Source of the DNA: Saccostrea echinata
Taxonomy: Eukaryota
Assembly: GCF_033153115.1 (NCBI RefSeq)
Contig: NW_026889779.1
Location: 7,316,001 to 7,380,000 of the forward strand
Length of the DNA: 64,000 nt
Direction: 5' to 3'
The notes below the pieces were generated by a model. That model saw only the letters and a program-made list of their open reading frames with translations. It had not been told where the DNA came from and made no database searches. Within the stretch, counting starts at the first letter, position 1. Every line of letters starts with the position of its first letter. A program made the translations under genes and the position numbers. Positions 26,154 through 33,276 of this stretch are shown piece by piece.

Positions 26154-27190
26154 TTTTAGCTCATCTGAGCCAAAGAACAGCAAAGTCAAGATTAGTCACA
26201 TTTGTATGGAAGCATCCTCAGGTAGTGTAGATTCAGTTTTGTGCAAATAATAACTCCCTGGGGTAGGATGGGGCCACTATAGGCGATCAAATTTTTACGT
26301 AGGAAATATCTTGAAAATTCTTCTTATCACGAGCAGAAAGTCTGGATTAGACATACTAGTATTTGTATTGAAGAATCCCCAGGTAGTATATTCAATTTTG
26401 TTCATATCATGAAACCCAGGGGTTTGCTGTGACCAATATGGGCAATTAAAGTTTTAGTTTTACATAGTAATAAAAAGGTAAAATCTTCAAAATTCATCTT
26501 CTCAAGAACAGTAAACTCATTATTAGTCATATTTGTATGGAAGCATCCTCAGGTATTGCAGATTCAGTTTTGTTTAAATCTTTGGTGGGGCAACTATGGG
26601 CGATAGAAGTTTTAAATAGGAATACATAGGAAAAATCTTAAAAATTCTTCTTCTCAAGAACAGCACAGCCAGGATAAGTTATATTTGTATGGAAGCTTCC
26701 TCAGGTATTGTAGATTCGGGTTTCCTCAAATCATGAACTCAGATAGTATTGTGTAGACTCATGACCGTCGCCCGCTGGCACAGCCTTTGCTCTAGAGTCG
26801 CGGTGTAAGGAGTTGATCCTTACGTCGCGGATTCGAATCCCATTGCGGGACGTGGAGATTGGTCCTTCGGATAAGACCGTACAAATCAAGGTCCCGTGTC
26901 GCAGTAGGTGCTGGCACGAAAAAAAATCCCTCACTGCTCAATGACCCTGAGTGCAGCTCTCCACCGGCAAGTAGTGGCGTCTCCATATGGCCATGATTGG
27001 TGATGAATACACAGGAGGAGTCTTTTTTCTAGGGAACAGCAAAGCCATGATTAGTCATTTTTACATGGAAGCAACCTCAGATTCAAATTTGTTAAAATCA
27101 TGACACCTGGAGATAGAGTGGGGCTGAGGTAGGGTCGGGTCGCAATATCTTATCCTAATTTTACATACATGTAGGAATATATGGGGTCTG
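26154..27190 (+). repeat. Cg170-like HINE satellite array with a nested SINE
   Basis: TTTTAGCTCATCTGAGCC start, then repeated GGAAGCATCCTCAGGTAGTGTAGATTC monomers. Confidence 0.82.
26763..26990 (+). mobile_element. SINE with a different tRNA-like head and the same Deu-like core, 3'-truncated, inside a satellite array
   Basis: TGGCACAG and GGATTCGAATCC boxes, then TTCGGATAAGACC..GGTCCCGTGTC..TCCCTCACTGCTCAATG. Confidence 0.75.
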
Positions 27191-27602
27191 CTGATTCAGA
27201 TCTCGAGATTGATAAAACTATTGCATCGTAGAAATCAAGCTGCAATTTTTGTGCATGGCAGTCTTACACGCTGTAGTTGAATGGCCGGGGTGGGGTGTTC
27301 TAACAGCCATGTGTTGCTTTCTAAAGTAAAAAGATATTCATTTAAAATGTTTATCAAATCTCTGATGTTTTTAAATCGAGTTTTACCTTACTGTATTCAT
27401 TTTTGAAAATCATAAGATAAAAATATTTTGTAGATTACTACTTGTTGCGTTTCTTTTGCGTTTCAGTATACTTAAAAGTGCAAAACACAACCTCAAGCCC
27501 GTTGCAGTTGTGGACACACTTAATTCTGGCCAAAATATGATTCTACGCCTATATTCTGTACACGTCTTTTATTTTGTTATATTTCATGGTCGTTTTTAAT
27601 TT

Positions 27603-28205
27603 TAAATTTACAAAATGAGTCAAAATCATGTGTTTCTTTTAAGATAATTGTATCATAAAACAAAAGACTTTATGTGAAATATGAATAAAGCGAAGTGTTG
27701 TCAACTCAGCTGCACTGTAAAGCAAGAAAAGAAGTGCAAAACGTAAGTGCCGGAAAAACAAAGGTTTTATCTACCCCTTAGTTGTTATCGTGAATATCAA
27801 CAATGTCAAGGTCACGCACTTTTATTTTTAGCGTGAAACTTGTAAACAACATTGAATTTGGAGCAAGCAGAAGTAGTGAGGAATAAGTTCTGATCATCTT
27901 TATTGAAGATTGTATCAAAATCCTCGGTCATCCGATATTTATATCTATGGAATTGACACCATGGTAAATCCTTCAACTTTTCTGCGCATGCGTACAATAA
28001 AGAGGAAGAAGTGAAGCAATATTTTTGTGTTGGGGCAAACAAAAATTATATTTACTTTTATTTTTCTCCAAAAAAGTAGATTTTTAGGTTCTGAAACGTA
28101 TAATTTTCTGAAACCTAATATCTTCAAGAATTGAACAAAATTTGCATGTGTCAACAAAAATTCTACTTTTGTCAGTTTTAAATTTTTTCCGTCACGGTGT
28201 ATCTA
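27603..28205 (-). mobile_element. Dispersed repeat of about 600 bp, Kolobok-like, copy B
   Basis: Reverse complement of 10955-11552. Absent from the paralogous site near 15140. Confidence 0.75.
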
Positions 28206-28254
28206 AATTCTTCATATTAAATGTTAGTGATTTATGAAATGATTTGTTGAAAAC

Positions 28255-28820
28255 TATGGTGTCCGGATAGGGCCATTTGCAAAAGCTCAACAGCGCGTTC
28301 AGAAAAACACGCCGTCGCGCTGACACACAACACGCTGTCACGCTAACACAAGTTCGCACAACACGCCGTCGCGCTAACACACAACACGCTGTCACGCTAT
28401 CACACAACACGCCGTCGCGCTAACGCAACTTTACACAACACGCTGTCGCGCTGTCACACAGCTCGCTAACACAACTTTGTGATAGCGCGAATGCGAGTTG
28501 TGTGTTAGCGCGACGGCGTGTTGCTTGAAAGCGTGTTAGCACGACGGCGTGTTGTGCGAACTTGTGTTAGCGTGACAGCGTGTTGTGTGTAATCGCGACG
28601 GCGTGTTGTGCGAACTTGTGTTAGCGTGACAGTGTGTTGTATGTAATCGCGACGGCGTGTTGTGCGAACTTGTGTTAGCGTGACAGCGCGTTGTGTGTTA
28701 GCGCGACAGCGTGTTGTGCGAACTTGTGTTAGCGTGACAGCGTGTTGTGTGTTAGCGCGACGGCGCTTTTTTCTGAACACGCTGTTGAGCTTTTGCAAAT
28801 GGCCCTATCCGCACACCATA
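28255..28820. mobile_element. Palindromic non-autonomous DNA transposon (IS3EU-like termini), copy 1
   Basis: TATGGTGTCCGGATAGGGCCATTTGC ... GCAAATGGCCCTATCCGCACACCATA. Arms are built of about 54-bp CGCGCTAACACACAACACG subrepeats. Confidence 0.82.
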
Positions 28821-29320
28821 GGTTTGCACTGTCCATCTAATCTCGACAGCAAAAATATCCATATGCTTTATCTTTGTCATCGTTATCAAGCTTGGAAGTT
28901 CCAAAACCAGTTCCACTGTGACAAAAATATGTAGGCAGTTATCATCTCGCCGTGTGATTCGGTCACGCTATGACCTCTGACCCCGTAATAACTCCGCTCC
29001 CATATGAGTACAATGGCAAAGTCCATGGTATGCTATTAATATTGGAATGCCCAAATATGTGTCCAATTAAAATGTGATGTACAGTGGCACTATGTAATAC
29101 AGATTCAGTCTCTTTATACTTTATTTAGTGGTATAGGAGGAGTTGCAGTTAAGAGATGGGTACTCCCAGAGTAATGGACGGACGGACATCCCCATTTCGG
29201 GGGATATAAATACTGTATAGCAATCCATTGAAAATCATTGGGAAACCCGAGGTTAATAACAATCAACACGATCAAAGTAAGAACATGAAAAGATTAAATA
29301 TTGTAAATTTCTTTGTTTTC

Positions 29321-29889
29321 TATGGTGTCCGGATAGGGCCATTTGCGAAAGCTCAACAGCGCGTTCAAAAAAAACACGATGTCGCGCTAACACACAACAC
29401 GCTGTCACGCTAACAAAAGTTCGCACAACACGCCATCGCGCTAACACACAACGCGCTGTCACGTTAACACAAGTTCGCACAACACGCCGTCGCGATTACA
29501 CACAACACGATGTCACGCTAACACAAGTTCACACAACACGCCGTCGCGCTAACACGCTTTCAAGCAACACTCCGTCGCGCTAACACACAACTCGCATTCG
29601 CGCTATCACAAAGTTGTGTTAGCGAGTTGTGTGACAGCGCGACAGCGTGTTGTGTAAAGTTGCATTAGCGCAACGGCGTGTTGTGTGTTAGCGTGACAGC
29701 GTGTTGTGTGTAATCGCGACGGCGTGTTGTGCAAACTTGTGTTAGCGTGACAGCGCGTTGTGTGTTAGCGCGACGGCGTGTTGTGCGAACTTGTGTTAGC
29801 GTGACAGCATGTTGTGTGTTAGCGCGACATCGTGTTTTTTTTTGAACGCGCTGTTGAGCTTTTGCAAATGGCCCTATCCGGACACCATA
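29321..29889. mobile_element. Palindromic non-autonomous DNA transposon (IS3EU-like termini), copy 2, inverted relative to copy 1
   Basis: Same TIRs as copy 1. The central asymmetric spacer is the reverse complement of that in copy 1. Confidence 0.82.
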
Positions 29890-31095
29890 GTAGTAATTGC
29901 TATATAAAAAAAAGCGTGTTATTTAGATTTATTAATTATTGCCATTTTCCTCTGTTTGTTTTGTCAATTTTATTTAAAGATTGAAAATCTTAAATATATT
30001 CAAGTTTGAAATAGAAGACACTTACTCTGCTTTCAACTTCAATATTGCATTTTTTACGGTGGCACCTCGGGGTGACATATGCTTCTGCCTGTAATTACAA
30101 TATTTCCTGTTCATTTTCCACCCTGTCTTCCATCGGAGAATGAGTCAAAATACAGGCAGTCTTTACATGTACCGACATTATTGCAATAATCAAATATAAT
30201 TGATATCGTAAATTTCTCTTTAATTGAGAAATGTTTGACTGGATTTGCTCTAACTTGGCTTTCGAATACTTTTTCCTCCATTTGCTTTATCTGCCCAGGT
30301 GTCGCTTTGTGTTTCAATTGACCTGTAAAGTAAAGGTTCGCTTTTGAGTTCAAAATCCTTCAAATTGTATTTCACTGAACAATCCTTCTATTTGAGTTTT
30401 TTTTTTCTTTTGCATTCGTGATATTACTATATACAAGAAGACACAGAGTTTTATTGTTTTATTTCTTTTGTGTTTAGCTAGAAACCACCTTCATCATTCA
30501 CTTTTTACTCATGTTTCTCCTTTGATGCAGCCTGTATGGAAAACTAATTCACTATTCATTTTGAAATTGTACTGTTGTTCCTTTTTCTGTCAACAGTGCA
30601 TCTTTCCTTTTTAAGGACTGTAGACTTTGATCTTAATCTTAAAATGATTTTGTGAGAATCGTTACAAATTTTTCACAGACATTCTTTTCAAAATCTTCTT
30701 GTACGTATGAACATAGAAATTTCGATTTAATTGCGAACATTCTATGCACAGCTTACACGATATACTGAAGTCGTGATCCCTGGAAAAGGGATTTTATAGC
30801 AATATAAGGGCATTTCTTTTCATAAATCCAGCAAGCAAATACTGTGTTCATATTCAAGCCTTTTCATTATTTTCACAATAAAAATACTGATTTTTTTTCT
30901 CCAAAGCAAAAAAGACTCTACTTTATGTAATATTTATATCATGTATTTTTTTTTCAGATTAACTCTTAGTTCAGCTTTTGGTCAGCTGAGACCCTTTATA
31001 AGGGCAACGTGATTATTTCTATATACTTCATCTCCTTAGAATTCTGATACACGATAAGATAAGGTGTCTTTATGTCTAAGTTCAATCGCAGAAAA

Positions 31096-33276
31096 ATGGC
31101 GCCGGTAAAGATTCAACATGTACATGAAGTTGTCTTTTGTATTCTGTTATTTGCGTTTTCTTTCTGTTGCGCTTCAAACGCCAAAGAAGACTCAAGCATG
31201 CAATCTCAAATAACCCTAATGCAAAAATCTTTGACCATTCTTCACGAAACCGTTGAACGTCAAAACATCCGTATCAGTAAACTTGAGAATGACAATAGAA
31301 GACAGGAGGAACATATCAAAGAACTGTTGTCAGTGATTCAAAATTGTGAAAGGAAGAAAAAAGACGACAAGAACTCTGTGAACGATTCTACATCAACGAT
31401 GATGAAAGGAAACAATCAAAATCGTCAAATGAGTGGGTCAAAAAGGAATTTCATAACCAGTAAATATTACCTTTGCGTTGTTCATACTCTTAGATCGAAC
31501 AAATACTGTGTTACATGTACCTAATTTTTTTTCAAATCTATCTGCACGGGTTTAAAACAGCTGCCATGTTTTGATTTTTGTATTCATACGTTTTAACTTT
31601 TTAGTCGGGTACACTATAAGAAGGGAGAGGGTGTGGGGCTCTAACTCTGTTCTACAGAATATAGATGAATCATTTTAGATATATCTTATAAATCGCATCA
31701 GAAAACTAAAATGCAAAATGTGAATTATCTATCCTTCCATTTTCTGTAGATCGGAATTGATAAAAAAAAAAAAAAAAAAAAAAAAAGTAGAAAAATTACC
31801 GGTACTTGAAAAATTTGTTTTGATTCCAGCTGACAAATCTTGTAAAAATATACATGTAATCTTTGTTTGTAAGGCTCATTATTATAATTTTCATTTCATA
31901 TCTGGTATAAAATTCAACCTTTACTCAAAGTCCCCTTTCAATTTAAAAAATGACATTTTTAACATCAGCTTTCAGTTTTAAATACAATGTACTTTTAAAT
32001 CCCAGTCAATGGAAGTGAGGTTGATTTACCGTACCTATACTGGATTCTAAAACTTAGTAAAATTCCCAACAAAGAAAGACATATTGCAGGGTCTAGTATA
32101 CAGCTTATGATCAACCAAACCTTTATCCTTACTCTTCACCAAAATATTAACAGCAGCGAAGGAGAAACTTCAAACGTGCTAGTACTGTGCCACAATATAC
32201 TCAAGACGTCGTGTAAATCAAATGTGGATTCTAAATAAACTTCAAAACTTTTGGAAAATTTAAAATATGATTTTTTTTCAAACGTCAACATCATAGACAA
32301 ATTATTCCTCAATAAAAATGGAACTCGTAAATTTTCATATCTTGTGATTGGTCATCTACAAAATTAATTTATTATAAAAATATTCTGATTCTACATGAAT
32401 AGAATTTCAAATAGAATTCACATAAAAGAATAGCCGTTTAGCAAGGTTCGTTTATTTGAGGTCTTGCGATGATTAAAATACCAATGAATTTTTTATCATG
32501 TTTGTCTTTCGTTTGATATATCTCGGAGTAGATCTCAAAATTAATGAAATTTTTTTTTATAGAGAATTTTTTATCACATGTGTACATAAACCATGCTTTA
32601 TTTAAACTTCACATACTGTCATAAAGCAAAATTACAGACAATATTACTTTAAAACTGATATCATCTTAGTCAAAACTGTAAAATTTGGTTATTATAACTG
32701 TCTTTCCTTACAGTAGTTCCTAGTTGTATAAATTTAAAGCTACACAGGTAATTTAAATTAGAACTTCAGACAACATGTATAATCTAATGTTATTCTTCAA
32801 ACATCTATGTCATGTTGCTTTCAGAACGCCTTCTCTCACCGCCCTCAAGCTCACCTCCCCCATCGCAGGATTTTGTTGCTTTTTATGCCAGGATGTCAGT
32901 TACGGAAAAAGTCCCAAGTGGACACCATATCCTTGTCTTTGATAATGTGGTCACAAATATTGGACATGGTTACAATGGAGTTGACGGCATTTTTACTGCC
33001 CCAAAAGATGGAGTTTATGTTTTTATTTGGGTTATACGATTATATGAAGCTCAGCATTCCACGCAGCTCATGATCAACAATGTTGAGTATGGATCAACTC
33101 ACCTTCGCGCTATGAATAATGATGATGGATCTGTGAGTGGAAACGTTGTCGCGCATGTCAACAAAGGAGATGTAGTGTTTGTCCGTGTGTACCCTTATAG
33201 CGGATACATTGGAAGCGGAAATATCATCAGCAATGAACATGGAAAACCGTCGTTTTCCGGGTGGTTTCTGCAATAG
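31096..33276 (+). CDS. Secreted C1q-domain-containing protein 3 (diverged paralog)
   Basis: Exons 31096-31459 (alternative ATG at 31072) and 32825-33276, with a phase-1 junction giving ITKRLLSP. Signal peptide VVFCILLFAFSFCCA, coiled coil, and gC1q motifs VAFYA...FTAPKDGVYVF...SFSGWFL. Confidence 0.92.
31800..32390 (+). mobile_element. Decayed Naiad-like RT fragment in the intron of C1q gene 3
   Basis: FVLIPADKSCKNI..FVCKAHYY, with nucleotide similarity to about 20640-21270 (reverse complement). Confidence 0.8.

Follow-up and report, generated by a model that had tools for sequence, protein, structure and literature searches.

The window, i.e. the whole stretch of 64,000 nucleotides analysed here, is part of a 36-Mb contig in a 923-Mb, 425-contig animal genome. 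It contains a tandem array of three immune-type C1q-domain genes (12551-15456, 22015-29320, and 30039-33273), with C1q-domain exons at 13345-13902 and at the two positions listed in Table 1; over 12551-13364, the first two genes share 96% of their sequence. A neurotransmitter-gated ion-channel subunit (Pfam PF02931) has exons at 8319-10444. Between the second and third C1q genes, the assembly sequence holds a flipped half-kilobase bracketed by two elements (28249..29895). This rearrangement is intergenic, with no exon touched and no gene broken. Other repeats in the window include a 600-bp sequence present at 27604-28200 and 10959-11554 in opposite orientations (91% alike), the former copy of which stops 54 bp short of element 1 and has no counterpart in the paralogous flank, and another palindromic element (4658-5248), about 590 bp long and with tandem units inside, that has no match to elements 1 and 2.

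Table 1. Features of the rearranged locus, its paralog, and the full-length copies of the parent family. Positions refer to the window unless a contig of the genome (G000) is named. TSD, target-site duplication.
Feature	Position	Strand	Details
Empty site (ancestral order) in the paralogous flank downstream of the first C1q gene	15150..15456	+	Alignment
C1q-domain exon, upstream gene	23745..24203	+	Pfam PF00386, E 7e-20; about 4 kb from the rearrangement, untouched
TSD GAAAAC, 6 bp, left copy	28249..28254	+	Single paralog copy at 15193-15198; top 0.5% target-like by the family TSD matrix
Element 1, non-autonomous, palindromic, IS3EU-like, subfamily A, intact	28255..28820	+	566 bp, TATGG..CCATA
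Orphan flank CAAACC (minus strand)	28821..28826	-	Top 2.4% target-like
Host-repeat piece marking the far breakpoint	28821..28852	-	Motif in 22/28 host-repeat copies, 51-90 bp upstream of the 29890 sequence
Inverted non-coding segment, 494 bp	28821..29314	-	Paralog 15199-15456 continues in reverse at 29071-29314
TSD, inverted copy GTTTTC	29315..29320	-	Exact reverse complement of GAAAAC
Element 2, same family as element 1 but opposite in orientation, intact member of subfamily B	29321..29889	-	569 bp, TATGG..CCATA
Orphan flank GTAGTA and rest of the host repeat	29890..29995	+	About 83 bp of the repeat missing before 29890
C1q-domain exon, downstream gene	32788..33273	+	Pfam PF00386, E 7e-19; first long frame from near 31063, untouched
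Young full-length copy	C5:13191516-13218432		Exact 6-bp TSD
Young full-length copy	C9:45154141-45184349		Exact 6-bp TSD
Young full-length copy	C12:183518-209670		Exact 6-bp TSD
Young full-length copy	C13:4502661-4544297		Exact 6-bp TSD
Young full-length copy	C36:2874395-2922516		Exact 6-bp TSD
Young full-length copy	C45:2048464-2073339		Exact 6-bp TSD
Young full-length copy	C52:7081504-7132286		Exact 6-bp TSD

An earlier note on this DNA had described an inversion with palindromic elements on both sides, and the assembly bears this out. Paralog positions 15150-15198 align to 28207-28254, ending in GAAAAC, and the directly following 15199-15456 align to the reverse complement of 29071-29314, with the two parts joining without base loss. 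Strand alignment of the middle (190 in reverse vs. 19 forward) agrees with the claimed reverse continuation of the paralog flank. The inversion is also confirmed from its far side, because copies of a host repeat carry its end motif upstream of the sequence beginning at 29890. The inversion of the middle segment is real in the assembly. Reads from four runs of one sample (word share 0.07) placed on 27300-30900 covered repeats only, leaving the unique stretch 30083-30324 empty. The inverted segment contains no reading frame of note, and a coding role for it was dropped on these grounds.

The short motif at the two element ends follows the same pattern. GAAAAC adjoins the left end of element 1 and, as its exact reverse complement, the left end of element 2, so that the paralog has one copy and the inversion locus two. 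An exact 6/6 match would arise by chance with a probability of 0.0004 given the base composition and 0.0013 given the target bias of the family. The remaining flanks, GGTTTG and GTAGTA, form no TSD between them. The TSD of this family is 6 bp long, and the proposal that GAAAAC is a 6-bp TSD split by the inversion is sustained.

Element 1 folds into a long hairpin (z -29, matched by none of 100 shuffles). The two elements have an asymmetric core and lie in opposite orientations, with an alignment value of 672 for element 1 against the reverse complement of element 2 vs. 583 against its forward strand. They are 95% alike over 512 aligned bases, and their closest relatives lie elsewhere: element 1 differs by 1.1%-2.2% from the copies L026, L061, L094, L057, and L115, and element 2 by 2.5%-2.8% from L060 and unit 1 of L188 vs. 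4.9% from element 1. Replicative duplication of one element was ruled out, with the copies 4.9% apart and each nearer to copies elsewhere. At eight terminal diagnostic sites, element 1 carries the subfamily A state throughout (8/8) and element 2 the subfamily B state at 7/8, the eighth being a length change in an A-run. The arm variants taken by the earlier note to be private to each copy are therefore subfamily marks: most of the family carries the variant of element 1 (TTCAGAAAA), and that of element 2 is common to at least two other copies (L060 and L188). Both elements are thus intact members of two subfamilies and neither is a visible recombinant; no diagnostic site shows a subfamily switch, the last one lies 48 bases from the terminus, and a crossover confined to the innermost 47 bp would leave no trace. 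Among the relatives, L188 (C30:11045175-11047121 in G000) consists of a subfamily B copy followed by two truncated head-to-tail units that start 18 bases into the terminal repeat, an array without a flanking TSD, and two further loci (L190, C1:23229081-23229097; L156, C51:9546567-9546583) have 16 bp of the right terminus duplicated.

The terminal 26 bases have 144 matches in the genome (reversed control, 0), and the exact terminal 16 bases mark 184 ends in 923 Mb. We examined 65 loci, with eight repeat-copy loci dropped: 50 have two ends within 1.2 kb and 15 have one end. The 6-bp TSD is exact in 28/50 of the two-ended short copies, of which a few share flanks and may be segmental duplicates, and it has one mismatch in 12/50. 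The other ten mismatch at three or more flank bases, indicating that flank loss occurs, with about half of these cases being small offsets. A 4-bp TSD with CTATGG..CCATAG termini was ruled out, the family TSD being 6 bp.

Several of the single ends pair up over 25-51 kb and represent full-length parent copies. Seven young copies (Table 1) all have an exact TSD, and the ends compared are 96.5%-99.8% alike; an older full-length pair on C3 is without a TSD. In the five copies read whole, the parent core is ~25 kb, with nested repeats adding to the length of some copies, and all five have the same TATGG..CCATA termini as the two elements. The terminal inverted repeats of the parent are about 350 bp long, 95%-96% alike, and built of 54-bp units. 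The short elements join the two terminal regions of the parent and are thus internal-deletion derivatives. A copy on C33 (27726231-27747056 and 27865439-27869535 in G000) is broken at element position about 4080-4096, its parts lying 118 kb apart in opposite orientation with an inverted 6-mer (one mismatch) as outer flanks; this is another and larger inversion, one of whose breakpoints falls within the element. In addition, pairs of element ends at C9:39915606-40104401 and C24:417260-606522 (G000) have identical flanks and a spacing of 189 kb, and C24 may be a haplotype duplicate.

The parent genes are intron-rich. A Pfam scan of 20 of the 94 listed parent reading frames assigned one exon to the integrase core rva_4 (PF24764, E 3e-7, above the cut-off), with another exon at E 0.004, and one of the 20 frames to HECT. 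An Atlas search with another HECT-side exon returned hits at 0.96, including a HECT-type cluster. Exons with the D, D, and E motifs are present in 5/5 copies read and converge with the HECT exons, which lie on the other strand. As judged from these exons and from the similarity of the copy ends, this genome has a young autonomous family with a putative integrase-core transposase and HECT E3 ligase exons.

TA..TA termini and a 6-bp TSD define IS3EU/GingerRoot elements (PMC10045372), and fungal IS3EU termini are described as TAYGG..CCRTA (PMC12730594). The family studied here resembles these elements in its TAYGG..CCRTA termini, 6-bp TSD, terminal repeats of >30 bp, integrase-related D-D-E transposase, and second gene in opposite orientation (PMC10045372, PMC12730594, PMC6839031). 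Its classification as IS3EU-like is based on the ends, the TSD, and the domain. It differs from the elements as described in these sources in several respects. GingerRoot elements are 3.9-12.9 kb long (PMC6839031), whereas the parent, nested insertions excluded, measures about 25 kb and has 350-bp terminal repeats of 54-bp units, intron-rich genes, and HECT exons. In the fungal IS3EU families described, the second gene encodes an alpha-kinase (PMC10045372, PMC12730594, PMC6839031). Maverick/Polinton elements, with AG..CT/TC termini and a DNA polymerase gene (PMC6839031), were rejected as a match: the termini here are TA..TA, and the 20 of 94 frames scanned contain no polymerase family. IS3EU elements were already known in oysters, since a table of oyster satellites lists two related to IS3EU (PMC8268682), and a bivalve transposon survey, searched by term, names neither IS3 nor HECT nor alternative transposition (PMC10294476). 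The literature searched contained no combination of IS3EU with HECT and no description of the seven full-length copies, nor was a HECT-bearing DNA transposon named in a title among the matches listed; Repbase, supplements, and subscription papers lie outside this search and may hold a HECT-bearing IS3EU entry.

The far breakpoint lies in a dispersed host repeat, which forms the sequence to the right of element 2. We fetched 28 of its 38 copies other than the locus itself and the paralog, and the 22 of these with the motif of 28821-28852 place it a median of 82.5 bp (range 51-90) upstream of the 29890 sequence; all 300 random controls fell below the cut-off, with a maximum score of 22. The resulting gap of about 83 bp falls exactly between the two orphan element ends. 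With eight host-repeat copies as queries, no copy of the lost spacer was found elsewhere in the window. A deletion via a 3-base match (ATA) at the right end of element 2 was rejected, as it needs a second small deletion and a plain T-to-G change is simpler; the G is found in 1/28 host-repeat copies.

Under the TSD matrix of the family, the target likelihood ratios are 9.5 for GAAAAC, 5.2 for GGTTTG, and 0.66 for GTAGTA. The CAAACC flank is likely to be the original target site of element 1, its partner copy having been lost. GTAGTA scores no better than background, although another copy (L122) has the reverse complement of this 6-mer as a real TSD. In the ancestral orientation both breakpoints (15193-15205 and the copies matching 28821-28852) read alike, as an A-run, C, AAAG, and another A-run, and the target preference is perhaps wider than 6 bp.

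We consider it probable that the locus was made by one reversed-ends transposition, in which both ends were inserted together at GAAAAC. Turning back element 1 and the middle would give an ancestral order of flank, GAAAAC, middle, element 1, spacer, element 2, and flank, with elements of different subfamilies pointing the same way and separated by about 90 bp within an old host repeat. From such a precursor, a putative transposase of the 25-kb parent family would have paired the two spacer-facing ends, releasing the spacer, and both ends would then have been inserted 0.5 kb upstream at GAAAAC. As each element would remain joined to the flank on its other side, element 1 would flip together with the 0.5 kb (28255-29314), GAAAAC would be duplicated with one copy inverted, and the spacer would be lost along with one copy of each older TSD, leaving two orphan flanks. 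The reacting ends would be the present left ends of both elements and not the inner ends; judged by their orientation, the two copies adjoin GAAAAC with opposite element ends, a normal pair. The precursor arrangement, the single step, and the enzyme are what we infer in this explanation. Inversions of the reversed-ends type are described as having both breakpoints occupied by an element, the two reacted ends flanked by a TSD, and the inter-element piece lost (PMC8225341). Correspondingly, the locus has an element at each breakpoint in opposite orientation, a new TSD at the reacted ends, and a lost spacer. Several points speak against a single step. It requires two independent insertions about 90 bp apart, which should be rare with 184 exact ends in 923 Mb, and the genome now has no facing end pairs that are abutted or within 30 bp (0 matches). 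In addition, GTAGTA, the predicted target site of element 2, is not target-like, and the 184 ends compared by eye contain no further two-element case with swapped TSDs.

A two-step origin, the main rival, is unlikely by comparison. Here, element 1 would have entered GAAAAC, an opposite element 2 would have landed 0.5 kb away, and ectopic recombination or template switching between the inner arms would have flipped the middle; a separate deletion beside element 2 would have taken one copy of its TSD and about 83 bp. Inversions arising by ectopic recombination, as with Galileo, have two split TSD pairs with the TSDs exchanged. At our locus, only one split TSD pair is found and the spacer is missing; of the two original TSDs that non-allelic homologous recombination should exchange, only GAAAAC pairs. 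The exchange would also be limited to the terminal 47 of 566 bp (8%), where the adjoining DNA is non-homologous, and the deletion would have to stop exactly at the element end. These two coincidences are not needed by a single step, which argues against the two-step origin. In its favour, CAAACC is target-like and GTAGTA is not, as expected for a TSD and a deletion end, respectively, and flank loss does occur in the family (10/50 short copies with three or more mismatches). The elements are moreover inverted repeats of a textbook kind for such exchange, as in the Galileo inversions (PMC4168063).

The earlier note had suggested an exchange at the inner termini by recombination or transposase action. 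A transposase was thus rightly among its guesses, but an exchange at the inner termini is not favoured, because the second split TSD is absent (GGTTTG vs. GTAGTA), the loss of about 83 bp at the far breakpoint stays unexplained, and a crossover would be confined to the last 47 of 566 bp. We also regard as improbable a version in which transposase cuts both inner ends of already inverted elements and end-joining restores the middle in reverse, with about 90 bp trimmed on one side. It would leave both elements intact, the spacer loss would be explained by trimming, and like ends might pair, given the 95%-96% similarity of the parent terminal repeats over about 350 bp; yet it needs base-exact rejoining at both termini with a whole TSD kept, and neither joint shows filler or microhomology. 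An assembly artefact, in which the palindromes flipped the middle and the genome itself has a normal TSD around element 1 and a deletion next to element 2, is very improbable: strong hairpins in both elements and inverted repeats in the inner arms speak for it, but the 1.6-kb structure lies in a 36-Mb contig of a 425-contig assembly, which suggests long reads, and the elements are 4.9% apart with their subfamily states kept, so that a flip would need to fall inside 47 bp. The earlier note raised the possibility that the segment is still invertible and polymorphic. Lying between 95%-alike inverted repeats 0.5 kb apart, the middle could flip again by host recombination, and the ancestor would not be restored thereby.

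In bacteria, the junction intermediates of IS3, IS30, and IS21 elements join the ends of two direct copies, with the DNA between them lost, and integration of such an end-to-end junction gives an inversion with a split TSD. No abutted junction of this kind is present in the genome studied here (0 matches), and the scar would be compatible with a cut-and-paste enzyme as well as with an IS3-like junction. The reversed-ends inversion proposed here is similar to those of maize Ac/fAc in the element at each breakpoint, the new TSD at the reacted ends with one inverted copy, and the inter-element loss (331 bp in maize, about 90 bp here), and differs in being a natural scar in an animal genome and in having a 6-bp rather than an 8-bp TSD, an integrase-core rather than a hAT transposase, and a 1-kb rather than an 81-kb inversion (PMC8225341). 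According to the list in the same source (PMC8225341), reversed-ends transposition has been demonstrated for Ac/Ds, P, impala, and Sleeping Beauty, and the literature on such inversions with a TSD comprises maize and rice, plus one yeast review, among the matches listed. Galileo of Drosophila buzzatii (Foldback-like, P superfamily) likewise has long, internally repetitive terminal repeats and copies at inversion breakpoints, which arose by ectopic recombination (PMC4168063).

A genome-wide search for swapped 6-bp TSD pairs, as the earlier note had proposed, recovered this locus as an exact case but no second two-element pair (184 ends, compared by eye). Among these ends, all with the exact terminal 16 bases as opposed to a changed 16-mer, the only other match is the split copy on C33, which has one mismatch, a single element, and a different cause.

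Beyond the earlier note, the new findings are the inverted orientation of the elements and their two subfamilies, the far breakpoint in a host repeat with about 83 bp missing, and the derivation from a 25-51-kb IS3EU-like parent. The rearrangement itself is small and intergenic, with a mechanism known from maize Ac/Ds; the little-studied parent family is the better lead. Still, it extends reversed-ends transposition to an IS3EU-like family in a host that the C1q array and the Atlas taxa suggest is a mollusc, with breakpoints that can be read to the base and an outside reference at both. More tentatively, the 25-kb IS3EU-like family might be pictured as recently active, with its own HECT ligase as a second gene, foldback-like miniatures, and end pairing across copies that inverts host DNA. 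If this is true, IS3EU would here have its first reversed-ends event resolved to the base, pointing to paired-end transposition in the superfamily. The seven near-identical 25-51-kb copies, with their exact TSDs and HECT exons, offer a handle on IS3EU movement and bear on the question of whether some of the many HECT-like genes in such genomes are transposon passengers.
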